From Haplodiscus bocki (Eukaryota), in the NCBI GenBank assembly GCA_965655095.1, contig OZ296655.1, forward strand, positions 70,432,001 to 70,496,000: DNA of 64,000 bases, given 5' to 3'. A model generated the notes under the pieces. That model had not been told where the DNA came from, did not search any database, and saw only the letters and a list, made by a program, of their open reading frames with translations. Of the stretch, positions 1 through 49,015 are shown in pieces. The number at the start of each line of letters is the position of its first letter. Within the stretch, counting starts at the first letter, position 1. Made by a program: the position numbers and the translations under genes.

Positions 1-3000
1 CATTGATAATCAAACGAATTTTGTTTTTTTTTATGGAGATCTGTCGGAAGTAGGGAGAATGTTGCTGTCGTGTGGGAATGGAAAAAGATTGAAAAAAGTC
101 AGTATCGAGTGAAATCATCTACCACAAAACCCAATGACTATGCACAAGATTGAAAAATGATGCGTATTGGAAACTTCAGACTTTGAAAGTCCTATTGAAC
201 TTGATTTAACTTATTTTCTGCTTCAAGAATTCATGAATTTATGAGAGAGGATTCACTGTCAGAATCCAATTTGGGAGGTTAACGAGGATGCTTGGATGAA
301 AATTCTTTGGAGTACTGTGTGCTGATAAAGTCCTGAGATGTTTATTTTTAGATTAAAATGATATATCACTTTCTGTCAATACCGAAGCAGAAAATCCGGA
401 GTTTTGGAAGGAGAGTGAATTGATGGTGACCTTGATGTATTAGAGTGAGGTGACTTGATCGAACAATAAAAGGATCAAGTTTATGAGAACCACATGGTAA
501 ATTCCGAGTGTGAAATGGCATTTATAATGAATTACAGGCCAAGTACTGGAAGAAGAACCATTGGCATTTGGATGGACTGATTTTTCTGGATTTAGTGTGA
601 ATGAACTTACGGAATCAAGGTCTTCACTGAAACTGTTTGGAATTTTTGAACTGCAAAAGTTTCTAATATTATGGGAAAAATTTCAAGTGCTTGAATAAAT
701 TGAAAAATTTGGGGTAAACCAAATTAAAATCAAATCTCTGCCTGAATAGAGGTTTAAGCTTCTGAAATGGTCTAAGTTGATGGTTTTGAAGCTATCGTTT
801 TCATATCAGGTCGATACCTGGCATCAAGATATGGGTTACTGGTTTGATGAATTGAAGGTTATGAGCTGAACTAGGAGACGACTGGTCTGACGAAGATTGA
901 GGCTCAATCACTTCAACGATCATAAGTGAAAGCAAACACACACAAGCGGTGCTCTTGGAAAATTGAAGCCAGACTAGACTTAGCTTCATAAAATGGAGTA
1001 ATATTGCACATGTTGAATATCAGAAAGTTTAGGATCCGTTATGAAAAAGGTATAAAAAAGGGAATAAATGAGGGGTTTCGTATTCGAATTGAGAGGCATA
1101 CGAGTGAGGTTGTGTTTAGTATCAGCGTTGGTAAGGCGTACGTACAGATTAGTTTTTGCTATTTAAACAATTTTGACATTCGCTTAAAGCATCTTCAAGG
1201 GTCGATATTTTGTTTCTTTTGGAAATCGTGTCAGTTGGCTTTGAGAACATTTTAATTTCTGGGAGATTTTTCAATATATCTTCAAGATTGAAAAAAATTG
1301 ATTGATGGGAACTTTTTTACATACGCTACTTTCATGAATTTTCTGATTACTGACTTCTTTATGGTTTGTAGTTTTTTGTTGGAAGAATTTGTTGGATTAG
1401 GCTGAGGTAGTAGGGCAATTTTTTAGATAAATGATGGGTTTTTCTGAAGAATATGGTACTCACTGTGTATTACGGCGCTCTCGAGAGATAGTTTCACTTT
1501 TGATGAAAGCTTTCGATTGACAACAAAAATTCGTTCGTTTGCTTCCAAAGAACCGATACCAAAGAGTCTCAATTTTTCGAAAAAAGAACAGCCATATTCT
1601 CAAAAGAGAAGTTTCAGGTGTCAGAGACAAATAATTTAGACATTCACTGATTGAAGTTTTGTATGAAAACCGTGCTGTGCTGAACATGCAAAAAGTTGAG
1701 AGAGTAACCAATTTTCAAAGATTATCAAACTGCTTGCTGGCCACCACTAACGATTGGAACTCTTCAATCAAGGTCTCGACCAACAGTTTGGTACTTGTAG
1801 AGTTATACTATTTAAGAAAATTTTCGTTTTTGACTTCCCCAGAGGAAACTTGAAAGGCCGTAAAACTCAAAGTTTGCGTTTAGTTTTGCCTTCTGTCGCC
1901 GTCTTAGGTCATTTTTCTCCCATACTAAAGACTCCGTCTACCTGATAGAGTTATCAATGAACACCATGAAACTTGAGATGGAACCTACTTTGAATATCTT
2001 CGACTTCTTTTTTTACATCCAGAACATCAAGACTCAAAAAAGTTAATCAATGAAAATACCAAAGGTTACTCTCAACTATCCAAGTCACAATACTTCAAAT
2101 AGGTCGACTTGATTTCCTCCATCAACGTCTTGATCGATGGCATTCCTTTTTGAAGAATTCATTCTATTGGGAGTTTCAAGATTCCAATCCTTGCAATGGA
2201 AACCCAATATATAAAAATCTTAAGCTTCTCATAGTAACACTTCGGCGAGAAAAGTGTAGAAACACTGAAAAAGAGGAAAAAAGTCACAGATTACTGTTTC
2301 CATTCAAATTTGGACTCAGTTTCTAGCATGGGTAACCTCTACATTCCTTCACTCTTGTCTGAGTCAACAATAGTCTTTGTTTAATCACCGACTCTTGCAT
2401 GGGGTTTTTCATTGGCGTATATTGCCAGAGTGTGCAATCAGTTTTGATTCTCCAGACTTTCAAAGTTATCCTAAAGTAGACTTTCACTTGCCTCAGATCC
2501 AAAAAATTGGGTTTCCTCCATCAAGGTCTCAATCAACATGGTGCTACCTTCAGAATGCTAACCGATCACCAAAGTTTTGGCTTCAATCCGAAAATCGGAC
2601 CTGTGTATTAACTTTAAAAAGGATGTTTCTGTTGGTAAGTTAATACTACAAAGAAACTTCGACAGAGAAAAACACAGGCCTTTCCTAACTTGCTTGACTT
2701 GAGGTTAATTCCTTGATTTGGCGCACGCTATCGATATCTCAGATTCCTCAGTAGTTCTCTTGAGAAAACAACTATTCTCTACTTGGTTAATACTTCAACT
2801 CTAGATTTTTGTCTAGATCATAAACATTCATTAAAAGTCATAAATGAAAAGATACACAGAGTTACATTTTGTCCGATGATATTTCAGGAGCTTCTTTTCA
2901 AAATTGTGTACGTATTACATCCGATGGGTTTCAAATTCAACAATCAAATTTCAAGGCTTGTTCATAAAATGGTAGCACGTTGAAGTGGGTTTTCAGTTTT

Positions 3001-4453: not shown

Positions 4454-4642
4454 CGGAAATGAATTAAGCTTTGCTTTTGTCAGAGGTATGTTTATGAATT
4501 AGTAGTATAAATGTTTTCTTGAAGTTTTCAGACGGTTTGTTCCTAAATTCTTAGAATTTATGTTCTATGAAGTGACAAAGTTCGGGTTCATCAAATTTCA
4601 GTTTCTCAAAGTTCTGTGAGGAATAAATATAGACAGATTTTT

Positions 4643-7320
4643 TTATTGAGTCATTTTATTTTTCCGACTGAGATTTATGAAATATTGAGTAAAGGACTTT
4701 TTTGTAGATTTGTTTTTCTGTGCAGATTCACACTTAGGATGGGGAATCACAAGGTAGGTATGAAGACGAACATGGATAAGTTTAGGCTTTATTAGAGGAG
4801 GGCTTTTGTGTGGAACGGTTGCAGAACAAGAAGCGAGATAATCAAAAGATGCATACCTGACTTGCAAAATTTCAATTTTTGCAGAGTATTCATCGTCAGC
4901 ATCAAACCTCAAAGAGGAATAGTAAGCTGTAGATTTGTTAATGAACTTTTCAAGATTGCCGAAATATCAATGGGGGGCGAAGAAATTTTGCTTCGAGGAG
5001 AGTTCAGATTCAGGGGAATGATTGAAGTCAGTTTGAGTGAAGACATTAATGACATGTTTCAAAAATTTTCCACCATCATGATTAATTTGATCGAGAAATT
5101 TGACAAGTGAATGATTGTGATTTAGAAAGTGAAATAACAGACTGTTGATTACAGTGTCAGCGTCAGTCCGGTCATTCAGTTGAGGAGAGAAGAGCTGCAA
5201 GAGATGAACATGGAATCGAAGGCAGTTTGATGTACTGAAAGGTGTCTCTTCACAATCATCTGGGGTATTGTTTCAGCACTTGAAGAGCCTTGTTGAGGAA
5301 GACTCGAAGAGCAGCAATTTGATACTGTTTTCTGAACTTTGAAGATTTGGCAGTTTGGTGTGACAGTCAGGCGAAGACGTATACATAGTTGTAGGTGGAG
5401 GTGAGAAATATGTTTCTAAACCTAAAAAGTTAGTTAGAAAAATAAAATTTAGAAATTTTTGAAACTCTGCCGTTTTTGAGATCACAATGAATCACACATT
5501 ATTAATTTTACAAAACTTTAAAGATTTTTTTCTGGAGTAGAACAATTTTTTTCAGGTGAATGAAATAATATCTGTTACAGAAAGTTGTTTTTGTGTTACT
5601 TAAAGAAAAGCTTTTCAATAATGAAATGTTTTCAGTGTCAAATTTTTGAAGGAAGCTCAATCCTGAAAACTCAATTCGGTAAAGTAACAGCTGATTGCAG
5701 TCCACTAGAAGAGTGTTGCATAGTTTTCAGACTCAATTGGAAAATTGCACAAGAGAAATACGCAGCGTGATATCCGTGAAGAACTTTCTTCAGAATATCA
5801 ATGTTACATAAATCAGATTGATCAGCTCGGTAAGGCTCAAATAATTCCTCTTTTTGCAGGATAAGATCAAACATTTTTGAAATTTAGTTGATTGATCATT
5901 ACCTTTTTCAGCTTGAGAAATATTTTCACGATCTCTTTCACAAGAGGTATCTTGAGTTTAAGAGACAGATTAAGCATTTCTATGTACATTATGATGTCAA
6001 GATTGCTTTTTCGAAAAAAAACAGCTCATTGAGCAGTCAGAAAGGGAAGTTTTAATTGATTACTGTTGCGAAGCAAGAGTAATATATATTTTCAGAGCTT
6101 TAGCGTTCAGTGGGTGGTCGGAGACTACTGACAAATGTGATTACGGTTTAGCAACTGTGGTTGGATTGAAATCAAGATCATCATGTGCAGATTCAATGGA
6201 AATTTTACCTTCCTGAGTAGTAGTCAGAGGTTTTTCAGGAAAGTTTATTAGGATAAATAAAAAATATTGTCTCAAAGGATCACATTTTCGCAGTCAATCA
6301 ATTGTACTTGTTGATTTCAGATTATAAAAGGAATGGAGTGAAAATGCAGAGGTAAAGTTTTTTTGAAAGATGAATTCTTTTGCAGAATTGGAAGGAAGAT
6401 TGTTCCGAAAACGTTCACATGTCACAAGAGGGACAAGTTTTTTTATTCATAGATTGGAAATTCGGATTTGAATCATCAGCATGCAGATCAAATACAGAAG
6501 GTTGTGGGAAAATCTTTTGCAGTGGAATTTATTTTTCATTATCCGCAGTCCAGTACTCATATAGATTTTTTAGCTTTGACGCCTACGAAATGTAAGGATC
6601 ATTAAAGTGATTTGGATTTCCATGAAAGTTATACGGTGTTGAAACCATATATATTCATGTCGGTTGAGGTTTATATTGAAAATTTTCAGTTGATAACTGA
6701 GATGTTAGGGAATCATCTCCAATTAAACCAGTTTTCTACGATAGTTTCAGATTAGGAGGCATAACATTTGAAGTTAAACTTGCGGAATGGGTTAAAATTT
6801 TGTATTTCCTCTTTGGGTTTTTGTCGAATCATGATCAGCATTTTTTTTGCGGAGGTTCTGAATCACTTTTAACAGTGGAAGGAACACAACTAGAGGTTTT
6901 TTTTTGGAAATCTGTTTCCTTCAAAGATTCGTTAGAAACATGTAAAGAGTTCTTAACTTCAATGAAAGGTGTCGTATTTTGAGAAAGATCAGAAAGCGAG
7001 CTTTGTGACGAAAAAGTTTCTTTGTAATCATTAGGTACAGTAATAACCAGGGCTTGATTTTCACAATCAGTGAAAGGACGGGAAGCTTCCAAAATTATTT
7101 CGGGGGTACTCATATTGAGAAAAGCTCGACTTTTACTTACGATTGGAAATCAAGAGATGAATTGTAACAAATTGATGGAATTAGTGGTCAGTGGGAATTG
7201 ACTGATTGAAATATCAGATCAATTTTCAGGAAGGAGATATTACAGAAAGAATAAAAACTTGTTGCAAATCACAAAGTGTTTAGCAAACAAATTGATCAGA
7301 GAAATTAAATTGAGAGTTTT
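4643..7320 (-). pseudogene. Fragmented unknown ORF region 3' of env, probably an accessory ORF of element A
   Basis: Consecutive same-strand protein-like fragments (6835-7113, 5273-5485, 4967-5200, 4643-4912) with the same strand composition as the element. No recognisable domain. Confidence 0.4.
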
Positions 7321-7384
7321 TAACTCAGTGTTTTTGAATAAGAAATTGATTCAAAGATGGGTAGAGAAAGAACGAAGATCAACA

Positions 7385-8100
7385 AACCGGTGTGTAAAGT
7401 ATTAAATTTGGTTACAGTGAATGACATTTGTTTATTTTCAATCTGGACTTGAAAATTCAGTTGATCAAAGTTTGTAAAAGGGCCGTTATAAGAATATTGA
7501 TTCAGTTCAGCGCTTTCTGCGCCATTAAGATTTCGGATAACATTCCCACAATCATTGGGGTCCGGTTCTTTTGATAATGGAATGGATTTAGTATGCCGAT
7601 CCAAAAGATCATGTCTATACTAATTGGTATGTGGACATTGAGCACAAAAGACTCTATTGTTTTGAACAGTTGCAGAAGAGCGAAAAGTTGTACGTCTTTT
7701 TGCTCTAGCCCGAACAAAAACAGTAGCAAAAGTCCTAGTAGATTCTTTTTCAGACGGAGCTTGAGTACAATTATGTGATCGAATTAATCTAAATTGTTTC
7801 AGTTTGTATGGATTAGAAAAATAAGAAAGAGTGGCTAGGAGTTTATTAACCCGAGGATCATCAAGTTGTATTGAATTTCCAGAAAAGATTGCATCGGCAA
7901 GCTTCAGTAATGAGGAATTTAATATAACAGAGAACAGAATCATAGATCCACAGTGAACAAAATCATAGGTTTCAGGAAGTGGTTTTGTATTTCAGACCAG
8001 ATAAAGGGTTGTAAAATGTTATACTTCCTCCTTGGAGACAAAGTAGAGGTTAGTCCGTGGAAGTATATTTTGAACTAGTCACAACAAACGGACTAGGAGA
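7385..8100 (-). pseudogene. Truncated env-like gene, N-terminal part of a putative class III (chuvirus/Monjiviricetes-like) fusion glycoprotein
   Basis: Lies just downstream of pol. ORFs 7620-7943 and 7320-7604 read SYFS-x7-FRLIRSHNC-x29-S-x10-C-...-DPNDCGNVIRNLNG. SYFS is one substitution per codon from FDCS, and FRSS one substitution from FRCS. Confidence 0.55.
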
Positions 8101-8639: not shown

Positions 8640-11600
8640 ATTGGTCTTGGTCTCAAATTATAGGAATGAGCTATTCTTTCGGAGGAGGCTGGTATTATAT
8701 TCTTTCATGAATCTTTAGATTTACAAATCAGAAAACCATCTGAGGAAGAGGTAGAATAAAAACTTGAAGATAATTTTGCAAAAAACTTGGAAAATATTTC
8801 AGTACTAATATCAGAAGCAGTTTTAAGATCAGGTAGATTGTTCACCAATTTTGTTTTGCTGAGCGGAGGTGTCTGGTGTATCACAAAAAATAGCGTCAAC
8901 TGACTTTCGATGTTTGGAAGATTTTGATTTTTTAGCTACAGTTTTAGTAAGAGGTGAAGGTGTTGATGGAAATGGAGAGGAACTATATCAGCAGGATTCA
9001 GGATATGAATAGTTTTAGGAATGATAGCCGGAGTGATAGCCCTAACCACCGGTGTCGGTGATAGAGGAGGTCTATGAACAGTTACAGTAGAAGTAATTAA
9101 TTTCTCAGAGGAGGAATTAATTTTCCTCAGAATTGTTTGAAGTTTGTACATTGGATCCAGTATCTATAAAAATGGAGTTTATTTTCCAAATTGATGGAAC
9201 AGAGGGTATATAAAAATTTTTAATCTGAATCTGGAGATGAGATTCTTTCCAGACTAAATAGCAGAGTCTTAAAAGTGAAAGACGGGAGATATAACCTATG
9301 AAGAACAAGAAAAAGAAGTTTTTGAAAGTTTCCATAGACACACCAGTGGCAACTCTTTTCAACTTGATTCAATGTCGATGAGCAACTTTCTTCAATTCAA
9401 TATTCTTGAAAATGATTCTTTCTCCGCCGAGGAAGGTCGAATGAAAAGTCAAATTTTTTTTCTTGGTAGTGGTCGTAGCTCATTTTTGGTTCAAGTATTT
9501 CATTTGGAAGCTTGTAATTGTTTGGAATGCAGAGAAGAATTTCACCGAAAGACGTAGGTGAGTCCTGAAAATGTCAATAACGGGAAGATCGAAAGTTTCC
9601 GGAAATTTGTTGAAAGATTGAAATCTTGGCAATCGTGGTCTATAAATTATTAGTTGAGAATCAGAGTTTGACCTTGAAAGATGATAATTAATATCATTTA
9701 ACTTTGCAGATATAAGGAAATCATTATCAGAAGGTAATTGATTGGTCATCATCATAATTAGAGAATGGGTCGTTATCAATAACGTTATGATCAAATTCTG
9801 AATTGAAATGTCAAATGAAGTATGAAGATCATTTTGATTCATGTTTGATGTATCAGAGTCATGAAAAAGTTCAGAATATATTTGATTTTATAATTGGATG
9901 TGAGGAAAGAGTAAAGGTTCTTTAGGAGAATATCAAATCAGTTGATTTCGACTTGTTTGAAAGGATTTTCCATCCTTTGTCACAAGTTCATACAAAACTT
10001 CCGTAGGCTTGTTAATAGTTTTGAAAGGACCTTTTTGAACAGGTTTCAGTTTCTCCGAAAGTTGAAAGTTGAACAAATGAATACAGTGGTAATGTTTTTT
10101 TTTCAAAATGGGGCGTTTTTCGCAACATTTTTGCACGGGAATTTGTTTTGTTCACTGCGTATTGATATATTTTAGCAAAATATTTGAAGCACTGCTGTTT
10201 CAACAGTAGAAATTGGTTTCAACAAGAAGCTATGAAACAACGGATATAAATGAATTGATTGATAATGAGATTGAGGAGGCAATTCAGGAAAGTAATTTCC
10301 TGTACATTCACGGAATTGATTTCGAGAAAGACTTAGTTGGAAATTCAGTGGAAGTTGTGGTTGCCTATGAAAAACTATTTCTTATTCTTATGGGGAAACA
10401 TGCCGATGTGATAGTGGTTGAGTAGTATGTGCTTATTCAAAGAAATGTACTCGAATGGACCAGTTTTCAGCGGTTTCATGCAGAAACATTCTCGGTTGTT
10501 TTCCAAAATTTTTAGTTGATACTTCAAAAAATCCATTTGCCTAAAGATTATCTGAAAGTTTTGGAGAATGACGAATATGAAACAGAGTACAACAATTCGC
10601 CATTTCAGAATTAAGATATTCAGTTCCTGGTCCCGAAAACAGATACTGCGGTGGATCAATTGTTGAAAATCAGCGCTGAAATATTGAGTTTACAGCGTAA
10701 TGAGCAATATTTTTTTGAGTGAGTACAGTCACATGGTAATTGCTAAAATGATCGACAATTACACGAATTTACTGATTTGTTTCAGAAGCAGGATTTAGTG
10801 AACCTTTAGTGGCCATAGAGATACTATCGTAAAGAGTTTGACAGCTTCGATAATGGTATGATTGCAGCTTGGTTTTGTTTCAAATTATTGTTTTTACGCA
10901 TTGGGCAATCAATACAGTCGTGGATAATATTTGATAGTTTTTTTTGCAGAAATGGAGTATCATATTATAGATCAGATTTTTTTTGTGCATTATGCAAACC
11001 AGCATGAGAATATTCTTGGATTTTTTTTAATGCAGATTGAAACAGTGTCAGCGATAAGCACAAGCGAGACTTGTGAGACGGAAAATTATCATGAGTTTAC
11101 TGTGGGAAAGTGTCATTATTTTTCAGTGGTAAAGTTTTAATAGTTATCAATTCAGTCTGCTCATCAAAGTACAGATTTGGAAATATTCGATCGTATTCCA
11201 ACCAAATTGGACTAGCAGTTATTAGAGTTGTTTTTTTTTCAAAAAGACGAGAATATTTAGTCATCCATTTATTTAGAAACTTGCGTACAGGATGTCTTTT
11301 TTGATATATCAGCATTGTTTCAATTTTAACTAAAGTATTAGGAGGTGAAAAAAAATCTTTAAGTTTAGATGCCTACTTGAAGAATGATGGATCAAGGATT
11401 GAATTGACTAATGATTGTTCATTTACAGATTAATGTTTTTCATGTATAGCTTGCGGTTGTAAACTTTCAGTTCCAGAGTCATTACTTTTTTAAGAAACAA
11501 GATGGATTATCAATCAATGATAAATCAGGGGAAAAAGGATCATCATTTTGTCATATCATTTTCTCAGTAGGATCATCTTTATCAGTGATATGGTAATCTT

Positions 11601-14400
11601 TCAGAATTGCAGACTGTTGTAATAAAGTTTTAGTATTTCTTAAATTATTTCTTCATATTGAATTTGGAAGAGTTTAACAGTTTCAAAAAAAATTGCATCG
11701 AATAATTTAATTATGATCTTCCATCATTTTTTGTTAATACGAATGGAGAACTGATATTTCCTAAAAACAGCTAAAACAGGATGACAATCATCCTTTTTCA
11801 AGGAGGTACAATTTCACGTTTGACCAAAAAAAAGTACATGCTCGGTTCGGTTATCAGATTTCAGTGTTGCAAAATGAATTTGCAAAAGCAATTGTTTGTG
11901 TTTTGTTTGATTCATTTGCAGTTCCTTTTGAGTAAAAGAACGGCTCAACATATCAGCTACAGAAAACTTTTTCCCTTTCTTATAAGAAAGACAAAACTTT
12001 TGCAGTTTTAGCTAATTGCATTTGCGCAGTGTAAAATAGTAGAGAAAGGTTTCCTTTCTTGGTAAAACACGTAAGAATTGGTGTATGATCATTTAAAACG
12101 AAGGTGAAAAGATTAGAGCCATTGATTTTTTTTGAGAATTTTCAGTGAATATACCAATCCATTTAGTTCACAATATGTAGTACAGAGTTTTTGTTCATTA
12201 GTTGAAAAATTTCGACAATTATACGAAATATTATCCAGTTTTCTTTTATCTTTCATTTGGATTAAGGCACACCCTATACCAGTTCTATACACTGAAAAGA
12301 ATCTACAGTAATAAAAAATGGATGGTTTGTATTGGTTACTGACAGAGTAACTTCGTTTCCAATTGATGATTTAATTTGTTGAAACAGTGCTTTTAGTTCC
12401 TCATTTCAGTGAAAATTAATATTATGAGGAAGCAAATCATACAGTGGCTCCATTTTAACATGAAGTTTGTCAAAAAACTTGGCATAGAAGTTTTTTCAGC
12501 CAATGGGCCTGATTAGTTCAGATTTTGTTTCCGGAGAAGGAATTTTTTCAATTTCAGCCTTTTCGGAATAAATTGGTTTAATTGTATTGAAACAAAATTC
12601 ATGACCAAGATACTTTACAGTCAATAGCCTGAAAGAAAGTTTCTCATGACCTAACTTCAGATTTTATGTTTTAGCGATATCAAGAAGTTGTTTGATTAGT
12701 TGCAGCTTATGCTCAGAAATTGGCATGAGCCAAACATCATGAGTAAAAATCAGTGCAGATACTTGACTGATCAAATGTTTGAAAAACAGAGATATTTGTT
12801 GTGTAAAAAAGTTTGGAAGGTTTTTAAGACCATTAAATCTTCTAATGAAAGCGAGAAGTTTATCATCAGATGGAAATCCAATTAGTTTGATGGTTTCCTC
12901 ATCTAATGTAGCAAGTGCATATGCAGACAGAAGTTCAGTTGCACAATGAAAATTTCTTTTTGCCTTAGCAAGCTGTGTTACCTAAGGTTCCAGTGGCCAG
13001 GGTTCAGATGAATGATCAGTGTTTGAGTTGAGATGTTTAGCATCCAATGCAAAATCTGTAGTCTTTTTTTATGACAATCAATGTCTCCAGAAAAGTAGTT
13101 CCATAATTTAGTTCTTCATAAACCAATTGGTTTTTTTAATCCATTTTTTGTAAAGCATTCAAAAAAACTTTCAGTTTGTCCTGGTAACATATAGAAGTTT
13201 AGCAGGTCTTTGTGTTTGCAATTTGGTATCAGGTTTTAATCTAATCGGAAAAGGAGTAGATTTTTTCCGACATCAGTACTATGTTTAGCAAAACAGTGTT
13301 TATTTTCGACAACAGCTTTGCAGAGTTGTTTTTATTCTGAATCAATAAGATCAGAGTATTGACAATGAAATTTCTTCCGATTTTGTTAATTTTTTTTAGA
13401 GTATGTAAATGTGGAAATATTCGTGGAGCAGTTTTTTGAGACGGTTGTACATTGCAGACTGTGTTGTATAGTTTTGGATTTTTATACATATCAATATGGT
13501 TAGCTTCGAATTAAATGTTTGTTCGTGTCATATCTTGTTAATGAACAATACTCTGTTCGGTTACCTCAGGGGATGGTAGAGATGAAATACCGAATGAATC
13601 AGAGTATTTATAACATTAAATCTATATTGAGGTGCTTTAACAGTGGTAGTATGAATTTCTATACCCTTTATTAATCCCGTTGGAATGTAGCCATGTACAT
13701 CGTATTTTTTGAAATTAATACTGAGGACTATTTTTCGGAATTCTTCGATAACATTACCGCAAAGGAAAAACATCGTTTCACTTTTGACAGACAAGGAGTT
13801 TGAGGCATTTTAGCTAAAAAAGTCTCATGATTCTCAGTTTTAAGCAGTGAATCTTTGGTATTTTTCAAAGAAAAGTGTAAATTTTGCACAGTATTGAGTT
13901 TGAAATATGTTGGCTTTTTTGATTTTTTTTGGTAAAAAAATCAAAAGAAGGGAAACTTCCATTAAATCAGTGTGGTAAAAAAAACATTTGTAGATTGATC
14001 ATTGATTGAATGTTTGAAGTTAATGGTGAAAGCTTGACAATCAATATTTTTGCACGTATTTCTGAGCGAATGGCGTTCCGAGAGTATAATATCTAATATC
14101 AGCTACAGCGAAAAGCATGATGAAAAATTGTGATTTTTTTCTATTGATTAGAAACAAGTTACAGAAATATATTGTTTATTTGCAACTTGCGTTTCGTTTC
14201 CAACAGTCAAGGTTTTTGATGTATCATGTTGATCTTGAGTACAAACAAGGAACATTCGAGTGATCAACATATAGATTGCATAATTTGGGACCCAAACAGA
14301 TGCACGGCTATCAAAAAAGGAAGCGATCCCCAGGTTTGAAGTTAAGTTTGAATCGGTTACGCTTTGAGACAGAATATACAGGTTTTAAAACCAACTTGTT
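8640..14400 (-). pseudogene. pol: pol polyprotein pseudogene, copy 1 (protease, RT, RNase H, integrase, GPY/F, low-complexity tail)
   Basis: Protease FFDSRAS (from LDSGAS) at ~14298-14318. RT: PWPLEP ~13000, SAYAHATLDEETIKL ~12900, GLKNLPNFF ~12820, degenerate YxDD (IFTHDVWLM) ~12733-12750. RNase H: TVDS..GCALIQ..ISYNCRNFSTNEQKLCTTYCEL ~12150-12310, ADMLSR ~11950. IN: IHDCIDC ~10920, IVDHFS ~10755, GTEYLN ~10625. GPY/F KLKPVQKGPF at 9933-10070; YNLRP tail ~8655. Confidence 0.9.
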
Positions 14401-16106
14401 GGAGTTATGGCAAATGTCATTTGAGTGATATACATATTAATTTGAAAATTGTCTTTCGATTTGGAAAAATTTTCATTGTAGTTGTCATAATGTTCAGATG
14501 ATTTTGGATTAACAATTTTAGCAGATCTTCTACAAGCAGACGCAGATAGTGAACATATTCTTGATGGAGGTCGGTATAAAGAATCATACCTTCTAAAGCA
14601 CTGTCGATTTTTAGAGTTGGATCTGGAAAAAGAACGATAATAATTTTTTAGGTTTTTTTCTGAAGGAAAAGTAGTGAGGAGATCTAGAATATGTTCGTTG
14701 TTAGTAAAAAAGTGTACCTTGAACGTGATGCACTTCCATCAGAATTAGATTCTCCTTTGCGATAATGATATCGAGAACAAGAATTTTCAATTGATTGACG
14801 TGAAATTGAAGGTGATCGAAAACGAAAGTTTCGATTTGGAGAATGTCATTTTCTTGAAATTGAACGGATTCTTGAATCATAACTGTTGCGTAAATAATAT
14901 TTTACTAGATAAGATGCAGGTTGTTCCTTTCGATGAATTTGATTCTGGTACGCTCTAAAGTTTTGAGTACAGGATTTATCAGGTGATCTCGATCGAGAAT
15001 AAGTATTCCGTTTTCTTTCTTCATCTTTGCGTTCTTTGCGGAAAAAATGAATTAGAGTGATTGGAGTTTTGACAATAACTACAGTAATTCGAAAATTGTC
15101 GTTTATTCCTTATATTTGGATCAGTTGTTTGTTCAAACATGATTTCGGTATTCGGATCATGAATTTCAGTGGAAAAATTATGAGATTCCCGTTTTGATGT
15201 TACATTATCAATTTCAGTGGTTGATCAAGACCTTTTCTCTTCGTTTTATCTTCAGCATCAACAAATGTAACCACTGTGTGAAATGGAATGGATGGTTCCA
15301 TAACAGCCGATGTATGCTGGACCTACAGTTTATGAGAGAAGTCTTTCAAAATTTCGGGTAAACCTCGAGTGAAAAACTCTTTATATTTGAGGCTATTAGT
15401 TGCAGCCGAATCACTATGCCAGCTTTTTTCAAGTAATTGGTGATCTTTCAAATCTTATTGACGTACGTTTTCAACTTCTTTTTTCGTTAAAACTTGAGCG
15501 TCAACTTGTACGTAATATACAATTTTCTTTGGAAAAAGTTGTTTTTCGAATGCAGATACAAAGGCACACCAGTTATTTTTCTATCTCTTGGGAATTGGCA
15601 AAAAAATCTCGAAGCGATTCTACATAAAGAAAAATGTACATATGCCTTTTGTGCCAATGTTTAATAGCTACAGGAGCGAGTAGTTGTTTTCCCATAGTAA
15701 AAATCATGTGTGCATCATTTTGATGTAATTGTTTTTCGGGAGTATATTGATGGTGAAGTCCATCAGAAGTTTTCAGCAATTTCTTCAATGAGACAAAAAG
15801 TACAGTATAGTTTTGTATAATCGCAAGAGAAAGGTTTATTGGACTCACAAAGGAAGATGATGAAGGTAAAGTTGCAGAGAGACCCATATTAGGTACTGTG
15901 TGTGGTTGGTATAACGTTTGACATGGATCTGCCGTGACATTTAATTTAGTATTTGTTTGAAATGGAATATTGTTGGTACTACTCAATGAGTGAGTATCAG
16001 GGATATTCAGCAAAGACAAAGGGGATCCTGAAAAAGTGGGAACAGTTGTAGTTATTGAGTTCAGCATAAATGTTTGATCATTTGATGTGTTTGAATGATT
16101 TGTCAC
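14400..16106 (-). pseudogene. gag: gag pseudogene, copy 1
   Basis: Directly upstream of the protease. Capsid-like segment (SDGLHHQYTPEKQLHQNDAHMIFTMG; FFTRGLPEILKDF), degenerate zinc knuckle C-S-Y-C-Q-N-S-N-H-S-N-S-F-F (CX2CX4HX4[C>F]) at ~15042-15083, then an Arg/Ser-rich tail. Confidence 0.8.
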
Positions 16107-19100
16107 AGTGTTGTTATTCTGCTTATAGCTAAGATTATCAGTAAAAGGATTTCACATTGGTATGTATCTTTCAACTCTATTACATTGAGAAAATGTTATT
16201 ATTGCAGTGATTTGAAATTCAAATTGATGAGAAGTTGCACCAAAAGAAATATCTAGCGATGTAAACTTTTCAGATGATTTTGGATCTTTTCGAAAATCAG
16301 CATTGCTTCCAGCAGTTTCTATAGGACCTTGCAATAGATTGTAATACCGGGGGTCAGAGTCGGACTAGTTGGAATTGAGATTGCAGTAACTTCAGTAGGA
16401 GATAAATTTTCAGTGATTTTAGTACTGTTTATATTTGGATTAAGAAAAACAGAAGTTGTTTGTGTTTGAGGTTGGAAACCAGTACTAGTAGTTTTTTGCT
16501 TTTTGAGCACTCGTTTTTTCAGCAATCATTGATTGAGTTGAAAACATCTCATCAATTTGGTGATCAATAGGTCTATATTGGGCAAAAATTCTAAATGGGA
16601 AAGAAATTCAGTATTGATTTGAAGTAGGTTAAGATACTTCGAATGAACATTTTCAGTTTTATTAAAGACCGGATGTATTTCATATTCAGTGGAATAGTTT
16701 GAAGACTTCTAAAAACAGCTGCAATCTGAAGTACTCCAGATAAGTCGGTAATTGAATCGCAAGAACTTCCTCAAATACAGAGAAGAAAGTTTATTTTGTG
16801 GTTTTGTTACACTGTCTACAACAGTTATTTGGGAGAAAAATGTACACTGAAAAGCATTTTTTGAGCTAAAAAATAGCTCAATAGCCAATGGTGAGGATCA
16901 TTGAGTCTTTCATTTTTTTTCCACTTCAGTAGTGTCAAAGTGGTGTTGTTTATTACGAAATTCATCAATAACCGAGGAAACAACAACAGATTGTTCTGTT
17001 AATTCATTAGTTTCTATCTTCTTGCAGTTTATTCAGTATATTTAAGGATACATCCTGAATTGGCAGATAAACATCTCACAGATTTTTGTCCACGAAAATC
17101 TTCAATTGTTGATGTTTTTTTATTAGGTGAGAAACTACAGTGAAAGCTACAACAGCAAAACTTTATTCTTAAGTATTTTAATGTTCATAAAATAGACGAG
17201 AATCATGGTGTGCTCTAATTAGAGGAATTGAATAAATGTCGTTACAGTGTTTTTCAGATGGCAGAGACTTTTTTGGTTGTTTATTTTGCTCAGATGATTG
17301 CTCAGATGAGAGAACTTCAGTGAAATGTTGCTGCTATTCTGCAGAGGAGTTTTGTATTTGTCCAGTAAGTATCTCAGACACGAAGAATTCTGGGATTTGC
17401 AAAGGAAATGTTTGTGTATATAAATTTGAGTTTCTATTCGGTTCCACAGACGTTTCACTTTGCGGAGTATCAATGTTTTCTCAGTTTGGTTCTTCTTATC
17501 ATCATTCTCATTTTCAGATAAAGTTTTTGAGTGTGAAGTAACAGTCTGGTGTCTACTGGACAATCTTTTTTATTTTTTCCAGAGGAGTTGAAGGTATTTG
17601 AATCCAAAACGTTTCAGTAATCAGTATAAGAATCGTTATATCAAATTTCTGTGGGAAACCAAATGATTGAGGTTTCAAAATGTTGTATATTCTTATTAAA
17701 ATCCAACGGCCAAGAATGGAAAAGAAATTTACGTGAATGGATAAAAGATTACTTATTTAAAAAGTTGCGTGCAACCAAAATGGTTGTTAGCAAATTGCGA
17801 AAAACGTTTCGAGCTGCGGTGAACCAAAATTTTTTTTAGCAGAATTCCAATGAAGTTTTCAATGTGAAAAATTTTAGTCTTTACGGTCGGAGAATGATAA
17901 GCGAATGTACTTTAAAGACAGAGCTTGGGAATTTCTGAACAATCAATAATTGCGCACAATGACTAATTTAAACCGATCGCAGGATTATATTTTTCCGTTT
18001 TACAAGATGAGAGAACTTCGATAGGTAGAACGGAGTTCAGTACTATCTAAAAACTTTCTTAGTTGACAAACAAGTCTTCACTACGTTTTTTGCAGTCAGC
18101 TCAGTATTCGGCAACTAAAAATTCCAAAGACACTTTGGAAAGGAAATTGATTGTTCTGAAATTAAACGTTACGGGTTAGAAAAGGAAAAAAAAGGGAGCC
18201 ACAGGGTAAGAAACTTTCTACAGGGAAAGTTTTTACAACATAAAAGATAGGATCCTGGCAACAGTAAACTTATGAGGAAATAAATAATTCCGAGAAATAG
18301 AATTTACTTGATCGGAAGATGCCATTGAAAATTGCTAATATTATTTTTACAGACATTAGAGTATAAACTGTAAAGAAAAGTTTCAGTGCGTTGCTCGAAA
18401 GAATTTTCAAAAGGGAAACTGATTGATTACAGAGTTGAAAGAGGAAAATTGTCACAGATATTGGAACAAAAGATTTTGTCGATGTTAACAACATAATGGT
18501 AATCAAAAAGTGAAAGGAAGGCGAAAAGGAATGGCAAAATTGACTCCTGTCCTAACGTCAGAAATTTTTGACCTCTTGGTCTAGTTTGCGATGCTAGAAT
18601 GGAATGGTATCAGGGTCTGGGCGGGATTCAGTTACTAAGAATGACAGTCAACGATCATGTAGAAAGATGGCCGAGTTTATAGTCGAAACGACATTGGAAG
18701 TTTGAAGTCCAAACGACTGGAAGTTTAGGGTTGAAACGACTGTAGAAAATGAAGAACTTTTTGTTGATTAATTGAAATTTTTTATAAAGTGACGTCTGAA
18801 AATTGAAGAAAAACAAAAGAAAGGAGATGCAAAAGAAGAAGGAATAAAAAGGTTTGTTGAGAGAGAAGGTAGGGAATTTTGACGAGGATAAAATTTCACT
18901 GTTATCGCACCAAATTTTATTAACTTTAATATGATGTTTGCGTTGTAAAGTTAATACTACAAAGACACTTTGACAGAGAAATACACAGGCCCTCCCTAAC
19001 TTGCTTGACTTGAGTTCATTTTCTTGACTTGGTGTATGCTAACGATATCTCAGATTTCTCAGTAGTTCTCTTGAGAAAACAACTATTCTCTACTTGGTTA

Positions 19101-19215
19101 ATACTTCAACTCTCGATTTATATCTAGATCAGAAGCATTCATACAGTCATAAGTGAAAAGATTTACAGAGTTACATTGTGTCTAATGGTATTCCAGGAAA
19201 ATCGTTTTAAAAAAC

Positions 19216-22200
19216 AATATCAGAAGCAGTTTTAAGATCAGGTAGATTGTTCACCAATTTTGTTTTGCTGAGCGGAGGTGTCTGGTGTATCACAAAAAAT
19301 AGCGTCAACTGACTTTCGATGTTTGGAAGATTTTGATTTTTTAGCTACAGTTTTAGTAAGAGGTGAAGGTGTTGATGGAAATGGAGAGGAACTATATCAG
19401 CAGGATTCAGGATATGAATAGTTTTAGGAATGATAGCCGGAGTGATAGCCCTAACCACCGGTGTCGGTGATAGAGGAGGTCTATGAACAGTTACAGTAGA
19501 AGTAATTAATTTCTCAGAGGAGGAATTAATTTTCCTCAGAATTGTTTGAAGTTTGTACATTGGATCCAGTATCTATAAAAATGGAGTTTATTTTCCAAAT
19601 TGATGGAACAGAGGGTATATAAAAATTTTTAATCTGAATCTGGAGATGAGATTCTTTCCAGACTAAATAGCAGAGTCTTAAAAGTGAAAGACGGGAGATA
19701 TAACCTATGAAGAACAAGAAAAAGAAGTTTTTGAAAGTTTCCATAGACACACCAGTGGCAACTCTTTTCAACTTGATTCAATGTCGATGAGCAACTTTCT
19801 TCAATTCAATATTCTTGAAAATGATTCTTTCTCCGCCGAGGAAGGTCGAATGAAAAGTCAAATTTTTTTTCTTGGTAGTGGTCGTAGCTCATTTTTGGTT
19901 CAAGTATTTCATTTGGAAGCTTGTAATTGTTTGAAATGCAGAGAAGAATTTCACCGAAAGACGTAGGTGAGTCCTGAAAATGTCAATAACGGGAAGATCG
20001 AAAGTTTCCGGAAATTTGTTGAAAGATTGAAATCTTGGCAATCGTGGTCTATAAATTATTAGTTGAGAATCAGAGTTTGACCTTGAAAGATGATAATTAA
20101 TATCATTTAACTTTGCAGATATAAGGAAATCATTATCAGAAGGTAATTGATTGGTCATCATCATAATTAGAGAATGGGTCGTTATCAATAACGTTATGAT
20201 CAAATTCTGAATTGAAATGTCAAATGAAGTATGAAGATCATTTTGATTCATGTTTGATGTATCAGAGTCATGAAAAAGTTCAGAATATATTTGATTTTAT
20301 AATTGGATGTGAGGAAAGAGTAAAGGTTCTTTAGGAGAATATCAAATCAGTTGATTTCGACTTGTTTGAAAGGATTTTCCATCCTTTGTCACAAGTTCAT
20401 ACAAAACTTCCGTAGGCTTGTTAATAGTTTTGAAAGGACCTTTTTGAACAGGTTTCAGTTTCTCCGAAAGTTGAAAGTTGAACAAATGAATACAGTGGTA
20501 ATGTTTTTTTTTTTCAAAATGGGGCGTTTTTCGCAACATTTTTGCACGGGAATTTGTTTTGTTCACTGCGTATTGATATATTTTAGCAAAATATTTGAAG
20601 CACTGCTGTTTCAACAGTAGAAATTGGTTTCAACAAGAAGCTATGAAACAACGGATATAAATGAATTGATTGATAATGAGATTGAGGAGGCAATTCAGGA
20701 AAGTAATTTCCTGTACATTCACGGAATTGATTTCGAGAAAGACTTAGTTGGAAATTCAGTGGAAGTTGTGGTTGCCTATGAAAAACTATTTCTTATTCTT
20801 ATGGGGAAACATGCCGATGTGATAGTGGTTGAGTAGTATGTGCTTATTCAAAGAAATGTACTCGAATGGACCAGTTTTCAGCGGTTTCATGCAGAAACAT
20901 TCTCGGTTGTTTTCCAAAATTTTTAGTTGATACTTCAAAAAATCCATTTGCCTAAAGATTATCTGAAAGTTTTGGAGAATGACGAATATGAAACAGAGTA
21001 CAACAATTCGCCATTTCAGAATTAAGATATTCAGTTCCTGGTCCCGAAAACAGATACTGCGGTGGATCAATTGTTGAAAATCAGCGCTGAAATATTGAGT
21101 TTACAGCGTAATGAGCAATATTTTTTTGAGTGAGTACAGTCACATGGTAATTGCTAAAATGATCGACAATTACACGAATTTACTGATTTGTTTCAGAAGC
21201 AGGATTTATTGAACCTTTAGTGGCCATAGAGATACTATCGTAAAGAGTTTGACAGCTTCGATAATGGTATGATTGCAGCTTGGTTTTGTTTCAAATTATT
21301 GTTTTTACGCATTGGGCAATCAATACAGTCGTGGATAATATTTGATAGTTTTTTTTGCAGAAATGGAGTATCATATTATAGATCAGATTTTTTTTGTGCA
21401 TTATGCAAACCAGCATGAGAATATTCTTGGATTTTTTTAAATGCAGATTGAAACAGTGTCAGCGATAAGCACAAGCGAGACTTGTGAGACGGAAAATTAT
21501 CATGAGTTTACTGTGGGAAAGTGTCATTATTTTTCAGTGGTAAAGTTTTAATAGTTATCAATTCAGTCTGCTCATCAAAGTACAGATTTGGAAATATTCG
21601 ATCGTATTCCAACCAAATTGGACTAGCAGTTATTAGAGTTGTTTTTTTTTCAAAAAGACGAGAATATTTAGTCATCCATTTATTTAGAAACTTGCGTACA
21701 GGATGTCTTTTTTGATATATCAGCATTGTTTCAATTTTAACTAAAGTATTAGGAGGTGAAAAAAAATCTTTAAGTTTAGATGCCTACTTGAAGAATGATG
21801 GATCAAGGATTGAATTGACTAATGATTGTTCATTTACAGATTAATGTTTTTCATGTATAGCTTGCGGTTGTAAACTTTCAGTTCCAGAGTCATTACTTTT
21901 TTAAGAAACAAGATGGATTATCAATCAATGATAAATCAGGGGAAAAAGGATCATCATTTTGTCATATCATTTTCTCAGTAGGATCATCTTTATCAGTGAT
22001 ATGGTAATCTTTCAGAATTGCAGACTGTTGTAATAAAGTTTTGGTATTTCTTAAATTATTTCTTCATAATGAATTTGGAAGAGTTTAACAGTTTCAAAAA
22101 AAATTGCATCGAATAATTTAATTATGATCTTCCATCATTTTTTGTTAATACGAATGGAGAACTGATATTTCCTAAAAACAGCTAAAACAGGATGACAATC

Positions 22201-24814
22201 ATCCTTTTTCAAGGAGGTACAATTTCACGTTTGACCAAAAAAAAGTACATGCTCGGTTCGGTTATCAGATTTCAGTGTTGCAAAATGAATTTGCAAAAGC
22301 AATTGTTTGTGTTTTGTTTGATTCATTTGCAGTTCCTTTTGAGTAAAAGAACGGCTCAACATATCAGCTACAGAAAACTTTTTCCCTTTCTTATAAGAAA
22401 GACAAAACTTTTGCAGTTTCAGCTAATTGCATTTGCGCAGTGTAAAATAGTAGAGAAAGGTTTCCTTTCTTGGTAAAACACGTAAGAATTGGTGTATGAT
22501 CATTTAAAACGAAGGTGAAAAGATTAGAGCCATTGATTTTTTTTTGAGAATTTTCAGTGAATATACCAATCCATTTAGTTCACAATATGTAGTACAGAGT
22601 TTTTGTTCATTAGTTGAAAAATTTCGACAATTATACGAAATATTATCCAGTTTTCTTTTATCTTTCATTTGGATTAAGGCACACCCTATACCAGTTCTAT
22701 ACACTGAAAAGAATCTACAGTAATAAAAAATGGATGGTTTGTATTGGTTACTGACAGAGTAACTTCGTTTCCAATTGATGATTTAATTTGTTGAAACAGT
22801 GCTTTTAGTTCCTCATTTCAGTGAAAATTAATATTATGAGGAAGCAAATCATACAGTGGCTCCATTTTAACATGAAGTTTGTCAAAAAACTTGGCATAGA
22901 AGTTTTTTCAGCCAATGGGCCTGATTAGTTCAGATTTTGTTTCCGGAGAAGGAATTTTTTCAATTTCAGCCTTTTCGGAATAAATTGGTTTAATTGTATT
23001 GAAACAAAATTCATGACCAAGATACTTTACAGTCAATAGCCTGAAAGAAAGTTTCTCATGACCTAACTTCAGATTTTATGTTTTAGCGATATCAAGAAGT
23101 TGTTTGATTAGTTGCAGCTTATGCTCAGATATTGGCATGAGCCAAACATCATGAGTAAAAATCAGTGCAGATACTTGACTGATCAAATGTTTGAAAAACA
23201 GAGATATTTGTTGTGTAAAAAAGTTTGGAAGGTTTTTAAGACCATTAAATCTTCTAATGAAAGCGAGAAGTTTATCATCAGATGGAAATCCAATTAGTTT
23301 GATGGTTTCCTCATCTAATGTAGCAAGTGCATATGCAGACAGAAGTTCAGTTGCACAATGAAAATTTCTTTTTGCCTTAGCAAGCTGTGTTACCTAAGGT
23401 TCCAGTGGCCAGGGTTCAGATGAATGATCAGTGTTTGAGTTGAGATGTTTAGCATCCAATGCAAAATCTGTAGTCTTTTTTTATGACAATCAATGTCTCC
23501 AGAAAAGTAGTTCCATAATTTAGTTCTTCATAAACCAATTGGTTTTTTTAATCCATTTTTTGTAAAGCATTCAAAAAAACTTTCAGTTTGTCCTGGTAAC
23601 ATATAGAAGTTTAGCAGGTCTTTGTGTTTGCAATTTGGTATCAGGTTTTAATCTAATCGGAAAAGGAGTAGATTTTTTCCGACATCAGTACTATGTTTAG
23701 CAAAACAGTGTTTATTTTCGACAACAGCTTTGCAGAGTTGTTTTTATTCTGAATCAATAAGATCAGAGTATTGACAATGAAATTTCTTCCGATTTTGTTA
23801 ATTTTTTTTTAGAGTATGTAAATGTGGAAATATTCGTGGAGCAGTTTTTTGAGACGGTTGTACATTGCAGACTGTGTTGTATAGTTTTGGATTTTTATAC
23901 ATATCAATATGGTTAGCTCCGAATTAAATGTTTGTTCGTGTCATATCTTGTTAATGAACAATACTCTGTTCGGTTACCTCAGGGGATGGTAGAGATGAAA
24001 TACCGAATGAATCAGAGTATTTATATCATTAAATCTATATTGAGGTGCTTTAACAGTGGTAGTATGAATTTCTATACCCTTTATTAATCCCGTTGGAATG
24101 TAGCCATGTACATCGTATTTTTTGAAATTAATACTGAGGACTATTTTTCGGAATTCTTCGATAACATTACCGCAAAGGAAAAACATCGTTTCAATTTTGA
24201 CAGACAAGGAGTTTGAGGCATTTTAGCTAAAAAAGTCTCATGATTCTCAGTTTTAAGCAGTGAATCTTTGGTATTTTTCAAAAAAAAGTGTAAATTTTTC
24301 ACAGTATTGAGTTTGAAATATGTTGGCTTTTTTGATTTTTTTTGGTAAAAAAATCAAAAGAAGGGAAACTTCCATTAAATCAGTGTGGTAAAAAAAAACA
24401 TTTGTAGATTGATCATTGATTGAATGTTTGAAGTTAATGGTGAAAGCTTGACAATCAATATTTTTGCACGTATTTCTGAGCGAATGGCGTTCCGAGAGTA
24501 TAATATCTAATATCAGCTACAGCGAAAAGCATGATGAAAAATTGTGATTTTTTTCTATTGATTAGAAACAAGTTACAGAAATATATTGTTTATTTGCAAC
24601 TTGCGTTTCGTTTCCAACAGTCAAGGTTTTTGATGTATCATGTTGATCTTGAGTACAAACAAGGAACATTCGAGTGATCAACATATAGATTGCATAATTT
24701 GGGACCCAAACAGATGCACGGCTATCAAAAAAGGAAGCGATCTCCAGGCTTGAAGTTAAGTTTGAATCGGTTACGCTTTGAGACAGAATATACAGGTTTT
24801 AAAACCAACTTGTT
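19216..24814 (-). pseudogene. pol: pol pseudogene, copy 2
   Basis: Near-identical duplicate of 8807-14400 carrying the same lesions (protease motif ~24712-24732, RNase H fragment 22504-22704, GPY/F ~20342-20480). Confidence 0.9.
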
Positions 24815-26520
24815 GGAGTTATGGCAAATGTCATTTGAGTGATATACATATTAATTTGAAAATTGTCTTTCGATTTGGAAAAATTTTCATTGTAGTTGTC
24901 ATAATGTTCAGATGATTTTGGATTAACAATTTTAGCAGATCTTCTACAAGCAGACGCAGATAGTGAACATATTCTTGATGGAGGTCGGTATAAAGAATCA
25001 TACCTTCTAAAGCACTGTCGATTTTTAGAGTTGGATCTGGAAAAAGAACGATAATAATTTTTTAGGTTTTTTTCTGAAGGAAAAGTAGTGAGGAGATCTA
25101 GAATATGTTCGTTGTTAGTAAAAAAGTGTACCTTGAACGTGATGCACTTCCATCAGAATTAGATTCTCCTTTGCGATAATGATATCGAGAACAAGAATTT
25201 TCAATTGATTGACGTGAAATTGAAGGTGATCGAAAACGAAAGTTTCGATTTGGAGAATGTCATTTTCTTGAAATTGAACGGATTCTTGAATCATAACTGT
25301 TGCGTAAATAATATTTTACTAGATAAGATGCAGGTTGTTCCTTTCGATGAATTTGATTCTGGTACGCTCTAAAGTTTTGAGTACAGGATTTATCAGGTGA
25401 TCTCGATCGAGAATAAGTATTCCGTTTTCTTTCTTCATCTTTGCGTTCTTTGCGGAAAAAATGAATTAGAGTGATTGGAGTTTTGACAATAACTACAGTA
25501 ATTCGAAAATTGTCGTTTATTCCTTATATTTGGATCAGTTGTTTGTTCAAACATGATTTCGGTATTCGGATCATGAATTTCAGTGGAAAAATTATGAGAT
25601 TCCCGTTTTGATGTTACATTATCAATTTCAGTGGTTGATCAAGACCTTTTCTCTTCGTTTTATCTTCAGCATCAACAAATGTAACCACTGTGTGAAATGG
25701 AATGGATGGTTCCATAACAGCCGATGTATGCTGGACCTACAGTTTATGAGAGAAGTCTTTCAAAATTTCGGGTAAACCTCGAGTGAAAAACTCTTTATAT
25801 TTGAGGCTATTAGTTGCAGCCGAATCACTATGCCAGCTTTTTTCAAGTAATTGGTGATCTTTCAAATCTTATTGACGTACGTTTTCAACTTCTTTTTTCG
25901 TTAAAACTTGAGCGTCAACTTGTACGTAATATACAATTTTCTTTGGAAAAAGTTGTTTTTCGAATGCAGATACAAAGGCACACCAGTTATTTTTCTAACT
26001 CTTGGGAATTGGCAAAAAAATCTCGAAGCGATTCTACATAAAGAAAAATGTACATATGCCTTTTGTGCCAATGTTTAATAGCTACAGGAGGGAGTAGTTG
26101 TTTTCCCATAGTAAAAATCATGTGTGCATCATTTTGATGTAATTGTTTTTCGGGAGTATATTGATGGTGAAGTCCATCAGAAGTTTTCACCGATTTCTTC
26201 AATGAGACAAAAAGTACAGTATAGTTTTGTATAATCGCAAGAGAAAGGTTTATTGGACTCACAAAGGAAGATGATGAAGGTAAAGTTGCAGAGAGACCCA
26301 TATTAGGTACTGTGTGTGGTTGGTATAACGTTTGACATGGATCTGCCGTGACATTTAATTTAGTATTTGGTTGAAATGGAATATTGTTGGTACTACTCAA
26401 TGAGTGAGTATCAGGGATATTCAGCAAAGACAAAGGGGATCCTGAAAAAGTGGGAACAGTTGTAGTTATTGAGTTCAGCATAAATGTTTGATCATTTGAT
26501 GTGTTTGAATGATTTGTCAC
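24814..26520 (-). pseudogene. gag: gag pseudogene, copy 2
   Basis: Duplicate of 14400-16106 (ORF 25987-26520 matches 15573-16106). Confidence 0.8.
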
Positions 26521-26635
26521 AGTGTTGTTATTCTGCTTATAGCTAAGATTATCAGTAAAAGGATCTCACATTGGTATGTATCTTTCAACTCTATTACATT
26601 GAGAAAATGTTAATATTGCAGTGATTTGAAATTCA

Positions 26636-44600: not shown

Positions 44601-45213
44601 AGTTGAAACAACTGTAGAAAGTGAAGAAACTTTTGTTGAATAATTGAATTTTTTTAAAAAAGAGACGTCTGAAAATTGAAGAAAAACCAGAGAAAGCAGA
44701 TGCAGAAGAAGAAGTAATAAAGAGGGTTGTTGGGAGAGAAGGTTAAGAATTTTGACGAGGATGAAATTTCACTGTTATCGCACCAAATTTTATTAACTTT
44801 TAAAAAGATGTTGGTGTTGTTAAGTTAATACTACATAGAGACATTCTCAGAGAAATACACAGGCCTTTCCTAACTTGCTTGACTTGAGGTTTTTTCCTTG
44901 ACTTGGTGTATGCTAACGATATCTCAGGTTTCTCAGCAGTTCTCTTGAGAAAACAGCTTTTCTCTACTTGGTTAATACTTCAACTCTCGCTTTATATCTA
45001 GATCATAAGCATTCATAAAGTCATAAATGAAAAGATTTACAGAGTTACATTTTGTCTAATGGTATTCCAGGAACTTCTTTTAAAAAAATTGTTGGTATTA
45101 CACCTGCTAGATCAAAAATGCTAAAGTAAGCATACTGATTTTTTCTGCGGTAGGTTGTTTCGTTTTTTCAGTCAAAAAATTGGCTGGATTTTATCGATCA
45201 GTGTATCAATTGA
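26636..45213 (-). repeat. Tandem array of six ~3.1-kb units derived from the pre-gag region of element A (a seventh, partial unit lies at 16222-19214)
   Basis: Unit starts (aattg) at 26636, 29744, 32853, 35948, 39050 and 42154, ending at 45213; lengths 3108, 3109, 3095, 3102, 3104 and 3054 bp. Paralogous ORF fragments recur in each unit (SRHQTVTS..., TIMLLTST..., STGFQPQTQT...). Roughly 85-95% identity by eye. Confidence 0.97.
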
Positions 45214-47252: not shown

Positions 47253-47331
47253 TTTTTTGCCGGGAAATTGCTACGCAGTTATGAAGACTGATATAGTTTT
47301 TTTGTAAATCAACTTGAGATTAAAACAAATA

Positions 47332-49002: not shown

Positions 49003-49015
49003 GAGTGGTGTTAAA

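Follow-up and report, generated by a model that had tools for sequence, protein, structure and literature searches.

A dead Ty3/gypsy provirus in Haplodiscus bocki that probably carried a gB-type envelope gene

A decayed reading frame downstream of a Ty3/gypsy pol gene in the genome of Haplodiscus bocki raises the question of whether a gypsy element has carried the fusion glycoprotein of a negative-strand RNA virus as its envelope and, if so, how it came by that gene. The window analysed here is a 64,000-nucleotide stretch of contig OZ296655.1 (positions 70,432,001 to 70,496,000, assembly GCA_965655095.1). Working from the letters alone, the original prediction read the frame as the remnant of a class III, chuvirus-like env, captured independently by a gypsy lineage. 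Elements with a gypsy body and an HSV/gB-type env have been described across animals as 'ancient errantiviruses' (Chary & Hayashi, eLife 2026, PMC13524379); in the portions of that paper available, the list of surveyed groups does not include Xenacoelomorpha. A literature search for gypsy or retrotransposon envelopes in acoels returned no relevant paper and one unrelated one. The reading favoured here, with a probability of about 0.82, is that the insertion is a dead copy of an old Ty3/gypsy provirus bearing a gB-type env.

Structure of the provirus

Self-comparison and inspection of the flanks identified a single element in the window, read from right to left on the minus strand in the order LTR-gag-pol-env-ORF4-ORF5-LTR. 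Its features, in window coordinates, are as follows.

2600..2603: 4-bp target-site duplication; the same four bases occur at 45103-45106, beside the outermost 5' LTR
2604..2919, minus strand: 3' LTR of about 315 bp, TG..CA
4600..5418, minus strand: ORF5, about 270 codons, sense, broken in the window copy; 816 nt without a common stop
5640..7139, minus strand: ORF4, about 500 codons, sense, broken in the window copy; 1509 nt without a stop common to half of the copies
7376..7377: deletion junction, about 2.2 kb lost; the alignment to a segmental duplicate (L039/L042) jumps by 2155 nt
7377..7943, minus strand: env remnant, about the first 190 codons; aligned to P0082, an intact relative, with 48% identity across 188 aa
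7944..8620 (approximate), minus strand: pol-env spacer, conserved among copies; the end of pol was placed by the tail of P0160, an intact pol relative
9894..11429, minus strand: integrase region of pol (H2C2, core, SH3/GPY-type tail), broken; located by tblastn of P0160
11995..13266, minus strand: reverse transcriptase and gypsy-type RNase H, broken
13570..14450, minus strand: protease and pre-RT region of pol, broken; mapped by intact relatives
14942..15610, minus strand: gag remnant (capsid and zinc-knuckle region), similar to intact relatives with Retrotrans_gag
18895..18912, minus strand: PBS-like motif, TGG-initiated, 3 nt after the 5' LTR and common to copies
18916..19213, minus strand: the 5' LTR copy closest to gag, which lost its first bases at the junction of the duplication; identity with the 3' LTR 86%
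19216..29627, minus strand: tandem duplicate of 8807-19213 at 99.7% (LTR, gag and most of pol; no env)
29628..45212, minus strand: tandem array of ~3.1 kb units, each with about 110 bp of flank, a 5' LTR and the leader
44791-45102, minus strand: outermost 5' LTR

The element thus has direct LTRs with TG..CA ends, a short target duplication and a PBS-like motif after the 5' LTR, as members of the Metaviridae do. A clear purine tract before the 3' LTR was not found at 2920-2935 of the window or in sister copies (four copies inspected), and plus-strand priming may be unusual in the family. The LTR-to-LTR span of sister copies is about 19-21 kb.

The 5' end of the provirus was amplified after insertion (8807-45212). 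The ~3.1 kb tandem units of flank, LTR and leader are 88-93% alike; the 10.4 kb duplicate, at 99.7%, may represent either a very recent event or an effect of assembly. In one study, all 30 bins of the interval 4400-19290 are covered by DNA contigs, and depth over the 10.4 kb duplication was mixed, at about 2-3.5 times in X2 and X3 and about 1 in X1. None of the listed DNA pieces of that study was seen to bridge the 7376 junction.

Two further frames lie beyond the outermost 5' LTR. An unbroken 740-codon frame at 48986-51208 (plus strand), outside the element, gave weak Pfam matches, and a 161-codon frame at 46785-47270 (minus strand) resembles what we take to be an ORF repeated very commonly in the genomes of acoel flatworms.

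The envelope remnant, its relatives and its origin

The frame containing the predicted motif runs from 7943 to 7386 on the minus strand. Its spacing pattern, S-x7-F-x-L-x5-C-x29-x-x10-C, occurred once in the six frames of the window and a mean of 0 times in 20 base shuffles. An ORF remnant on the same strand directly after pol had been predicted; the strand was correct, whereas env starts about 650-700 nt past the end of pol, and 7944-8100 belongs to the spacer. The hydrophobic stretch reported ahead of the motif begins at 7943 and resembles the start of a signal peptide. One in-frame stop interrupts the remnant.

Two conserved cysteine positions have decayed in the window copy, and the prediction had restored both by assuming single substitutions. 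Among natural copies aligned there, drawn from 43 loci after same-place duplicates had been removed, 33 of 41 have cysteine at one position and 31 of 39 at the other, against a mean retention of 54% at non-Cys positions. Every intact relative aligned has both cysteines, and the restoration is thereby vindicated. Similarity of sister copies to the window env ends at 7376/7377, and a jump of similar size to that in the segmental duplicate was seen in alignments against other copies. Compared with sister copies, the deletion removed about three quarters of env, everything after approximately codon 190, including the central helix, the crown and the membrane anchor.

The segmental duplicate is an inverted copy of the window insertion and lies about 0.5 Mb away on the same contig (L041/L039/L042, 70.97-71.00 Mb). 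It has the same flanks and target duplication, is 86-90% identical, and still has the part of env that is deleted in the window; L039 spans the transmembrane region.

The env remnant alone matched no Pfam family and, used as a query, was too decayed to find a database protein among 469 candidates; its identity therefore rests on sister copies and intact relatives. All 150 scored places among 608 candidates matched the env piece, giving at least 150 copies. One of these copies, L025 (776 residues, translated in one frame with X at stops), matched PF24664, Monjiviricetes_fusion, with 28.5 bits against a cut-off of 27, and two others matched it below the cut-off. This profile was built on Monjiviricetes glycoproteins. 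A search with the L025 env recovered 35 proteins in other assemblies, including unbroken proteins 876-923 residues long, whose clusters number up to 1758 members. A wider search, at E 0.001, gave 1407 representatives, the full-length relatives having identities of 23-32%. Intact env relatives from other assemblies matched PF24664 at E 1e-23 to 3e-27 (83-96 bits), with P0082 itself at 4e-26, and the window remnant aligned to P0082 at E 2e-51. The clusters of intact relatives had 1758, 603 and 424 members for env and 1183 and 285 for pol. A sequence search of the PDB with the L025 env and a scan of viral contigs with P0082 each gave no match.

An AlphaFold2 model was made of P0082, the intact relative, and not of the window remnant (57 sequences, mean pLDDT 60, pTM 0.40). 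It has a helix at the N-terminus, long beta domains, a central helix of 45 residues and, near 691-741, membrane helices. Model and hydropathy together place hydrophobic helices at residues ~17-36 and ~691-741, although the hydropathy of these signal and anchor segments is modest, with 19-residue means of 1.5-1.7. At least 20 of the 41 residues of the anchor region are present in 25 of 43 loci, many of the others being cut by locus ends. The fuller copies and P0082 therefore bear out the expected signal-peptide-like start and C-terminal membrane helices, with the ectodomain between them as in HSV/gB-type errantiviruses.

When the P0082 model was compared with the PDB by Foldseek, all 36 listed matches were herpesvirus gB (best E 3e-11). 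Against BFVD, the best listed matches were glycoproteins of chu-like, xinmo- and qin-related viruses at E about 1e-29 to 1e-24 (2e-29 for the best) and 12-14% identity. A VIA structure search listed gB or rhabdovirus G as its best 9 matches (Z 8.1-5.9, rmsd 3.4-13 A over 83-420 residues), and an Atlas result at lead level (0.88) agreed with the fold searches. TM-scores were low (0.2-0.4); with the moderate quality of the model, they support the fold class alone and not the details of the model. The predicted P0082 monomer has the class III domain architecture of HSV/gB-type errantivirus envelopes. The class of the family's env is secure: it is a class III glycoprotein of the chuvirus-G/herpes-gB type and a predicted fusogen, which upholds the chuvirus-like call.

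The likeness to viral glycoproteins is nonetheless a distant one. The family shares with the G proteins of Jingchuvirales, Xinmoviridae and qin-related viruses a PF24664 match above cut-off and the best predicted-structure matches; it differs from them in its 12-14% identity, in its LTR retroelement carrier and in the long Pro/Ser/Thr-rich cytoplasmic tail of intact relatives. Herpesvirus gB and rhabdovirus G are the best matches among solved structures, at 8-13% identity and with no match at the sequence level.

A scan of metagenome contigs found eight loci with env relatives at 23-31%, one of which reached far enough upstream to show pol. L061 (positions 463-12095), from a metagenome record, is an intact gag-pol-env element of ~13 kb that has two more ORFs behind env and encodes its integrase in a second frame. 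The RT of L061 shows 45% identity to that of P0160, compared with 26-28% for the other gypsy family of the genome, and branches as its sister (SH-aLRT 99); the env of L061 shows 27% identity. An RT at 45% and an env at 27% indicate that the pairing of env with pol is old and not a fresh capture in the recent ancestry of the host. The env has likely stayed with this pol lineage through deep divergence, from long before the host species arose, to judge from these comparisons.

Independent capture, as originally proposed, was not borne out: the nearest viral structures are only 12-14% identical, and the one distant env relative whose upstream context was visible sits in a sister gypsy element. 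An older version of the proposal would have the ancestor of this gypsy clade, comprising the family and L061, acquire env from a negative-strand RNA virus of the chu-like kind, in an event distinct from that of the other HSV/gB-type gypsy elements. Chu-like G proteins are the best viral-model matches, far above herpes gB, PF24664 is itself a Monjiviricetes glycoprotein profile, and the RT is divergent from that of the other gypsy family tested. Several acquisitions are allowed for in the available text of PMC13524379, and for the four motifs of the env clade only one row was found in the env table of that paper, within the supplementary material available. Zero counts in a motif search of those supplements, whose cells were covered to 400 characters, do not imply absence from the paper. 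Against such an ancestral capture, 12-14% identity to any viral model is too low to name a donor or a direction of transfer, an insect HSV/gB row in the available tables of PMC13524379 has the same Cys spacing, and env and RT diverge together between the family and L061. We regard a separate capture of this kind as unlikely; it is partly compatible with the preferred reading of a dead copy of an old gB-type provirus.

The gypsy pol and its linkage to env

Pieces of the copies matched RT_RNaseH_2, RT_RNaseH, rve and SH3_Tf2-1 in gypsy order, and full-length pol relatives, 52-54% identical to the RT of one copy, had the same domain set. The order PR-RT-RH-IN, with a gypsy-type RNase H and integrase tail, is that of the Metaviridae. 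Searched against the PDB, intact P0160 matched Ty3 at 3e-48, a caulimovirus at 9e-25 and foamy virus at 1e-17. A quick RT tree of 31 rows, confined to the window family, its relatives, one other gypsy family of the genome and BEL elements, grouped the window RT with its intact relatives and joined these to the other gypsy family, to the exclusion of BEL. On this evidence the RT groups with gypsy RTs. The Ty3/gypsy assignment of the carrier was upheld by the domain set, the preference for Ty3 and the tree, the RT-placement check proposed with the prediction having given Ty3 as the best match and gypsy over BEL among those rows.

Long inserts separate protease from RT and RNase H from integrase (window 13300-14200 and 10900-11900; P0160). 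They are present in L061 as well and had no Pfam match.

It is very improbable that the carrier is instead a BEL/Pao element of the Anakin type or a foamy-like retrovirus. Capture of chuvirus G has been described for BEL/Pao (PMC10084718 and PMC12440569, in the parts available), the degraded window RT matched foamy virus (1.3e-4) nearly as well as Ty3 (1.9e-5), and the best PDB matches of the integrase core were foamy, with no stand-alone gypsy integrase among the matches listed. However, Peptidase_A17 and its associated BEL-specific Pfam families were not found in two full-length pols, the BEL RTs of this genome fall far outside in the RT tree, and the RNase H is gypsy-type and directly follows RT. 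The intact RT-RH favours Ty3 by 31 orders of magnitude in P0160 and by 9 in L061. Neither BEL-type pol domains nor a BEL RT were thus found, and the carrier is read as a gypsy element.

The two genes were found together across the genome, as had been anticipated. Twenty places with 10 kb of sequence were fetched, chosen mostly for long open env frames; all 20 aligned to the window over env and spacer, and 19 also over pol further upstream, one of these 19 being the segmental duplicate of the window insertion. That env is a free endogenous chuvirus glycoprotein fragment adjoining a gypsy remnant, in the manner of the chuvirus glycoprotein fossils described beside fragmentary gypsy elements of arthropods without clear capture (PMC10084718, in its available part), can practically be discounted, since env is collinear with pol in 19 of 20 copies, is enclosed by a single LTR pair wherever both LTRs of a copy were seen, and has the same order in L061. 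The intact P0082-type env and P0160-type pol are assumed to share one element.

The preferred reading places the window insertion close to several known elements. It resembles those of PMC13524379, as set out in the available text, in that a gypsy gag-pol precedes a class III env equipped with a signal peptide, Cys bridges and a C-terminal anchor, and in that env co-diverges with pol. It differs from the intact elements collected there in that the copies here are all dead, have two extra frames and an unusual RT motif, and are 19-21 kb long. Anakin (Dezordi et al. 2020, PMC7642597), as described in the available parts of PMC10084718 and PMC12440569, is likewise an LTR retroelement with a chuvirus-like glycoprotein as env, chuvirus-derived in that case, but with a BEL/Pao pol where this family has a gypsy pol. 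Dezordi et al. 2023 (PMC10084718), in the accessible part, saw no clear instance of a gypsy element capturing chuvirus G, which is the state of knowledge behind the original prediction. The Tor elements of Oikopleura (Henriet et al. 2015, PMC4402516) are, according to the part available, marine-invertebrate gypsy elements whose env is also set apart from pol by a spacer, and a membrane glycoprotein was demonstrated in cells for Tor; the Tor env is set apart from the present one by its description. The env of Tor3b/4b has other conserved motifs, and the neighbours of Tor4b are F-type in the available part of PMC13524379.

History of the family and its extra frames

In the 3' region, any two copies have about 65% identity (300 pairs, range 43-78%); the figure for LTR pairs is 80-86%. 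A search with an intact relative gave 8613 first-look candidates; no intact env was found among the 51 scored env candidates, and no intact set of gag, pol and env in this genome as sampled (0/51). As far as sampled, the family appears to have expanded in one old burst and then died. Other gypsy families of this genome, and BEL/Pao families, are young, their open frames running to 1560-1750 codons in the former and up to ~2100 codons in the latter (L069-L106). One copy is interrupted by protease-like and capsid-like antisense frames, 150-288 codons long, that resemble a virus-like or Maverick-type insertion (L048, downstream of L027).

About 4.5 kb between env and the 3' LTR is conserved among copies. 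Stops common to half or more of 25 aligned copies were mapped, and env was recovered as a positive control. Sense frames were open for 1509 nt (7139-5640) and 816 nt (5418-4600), and no antisense frame exceeded 381 nt. The ORF4 piece matched 150 of 150 scored places among 1034 candidates. From the open frames, ORF4 and ORF5 are probably protein genes. Profile and structure searches gave no credible Pfam or PDB match for either, the ORF4 model was unusable (pLDDT 41), and comparison of ORF4 and ORF5 with each other and with the extra ORFs of L061 gave hhalign probabilities under 1% and no tblastn match. The two extra ORFs of L061 are mutual paralogues, with 35% identity across 188 aa and coiled-coil ends. 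An antisense spliced gene in the 3' region was considered and rejected, the excess of TTTCAG on the plus strand being found in env and pol as well and antisense frames being short. An ADP-ribosyltransferase match over 40 residues in two of seven ORF5 pieces, below cut-off, was treated as chance.

The life of the old gB-type provirus can be sketched on the pattern of better-known elements. Reverse transcription would be primed by a tRNA and followed by integration with a 4-bp target duplication. Env would be made from a message of its own, either spliced or internally promoted, enter the ER by its signal peptide and be anchored by its C-terminal helices. Trimers on budding particles would then fuse with target cells, and particles made in the soma would enter germ cells, soma to germline being the most likely route. 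Drosophila errantiviruses enter germ cells from the soma with an unrelated env, and by analogy the present element may formerly have been infectious. The window copy subsequently lost most of its env and had its 5' end tandemly amplified.

A bolder reading is that the family belongs to a deep-branching, undescribed lineage of invertebrate endogenous retroviruses, organised like a complex retrovirus, whose gypsy gag and pol would be joined by a class III env acquired separately and by two conserved accessory genes. Such a lineage would be extinct here and intact in the hundreds of near-identical envs of other marine-animal assemblies, probably in a phylum outside the published survey. We hold this to be possible, but doubtful.

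The class of element is already described; the new detail is the two extra sense frames after env. Passages on extra genes after env were not found in the portions of PMC13524379 available, in which the means by which gB-type retroelements enter cells or evade host silencing are called unknown. If ORF4 and ORF5 are accessory factors, they would offer a handle on those two processes. A PF24664 tree that includes this clade would bear on the direction of fusogen transfer, from chu-like viruses to retroelements or the reverse. The window copy is one more dead example of its kind, and the finding serves as a pointer to the intact relatives that exist elsewhere.
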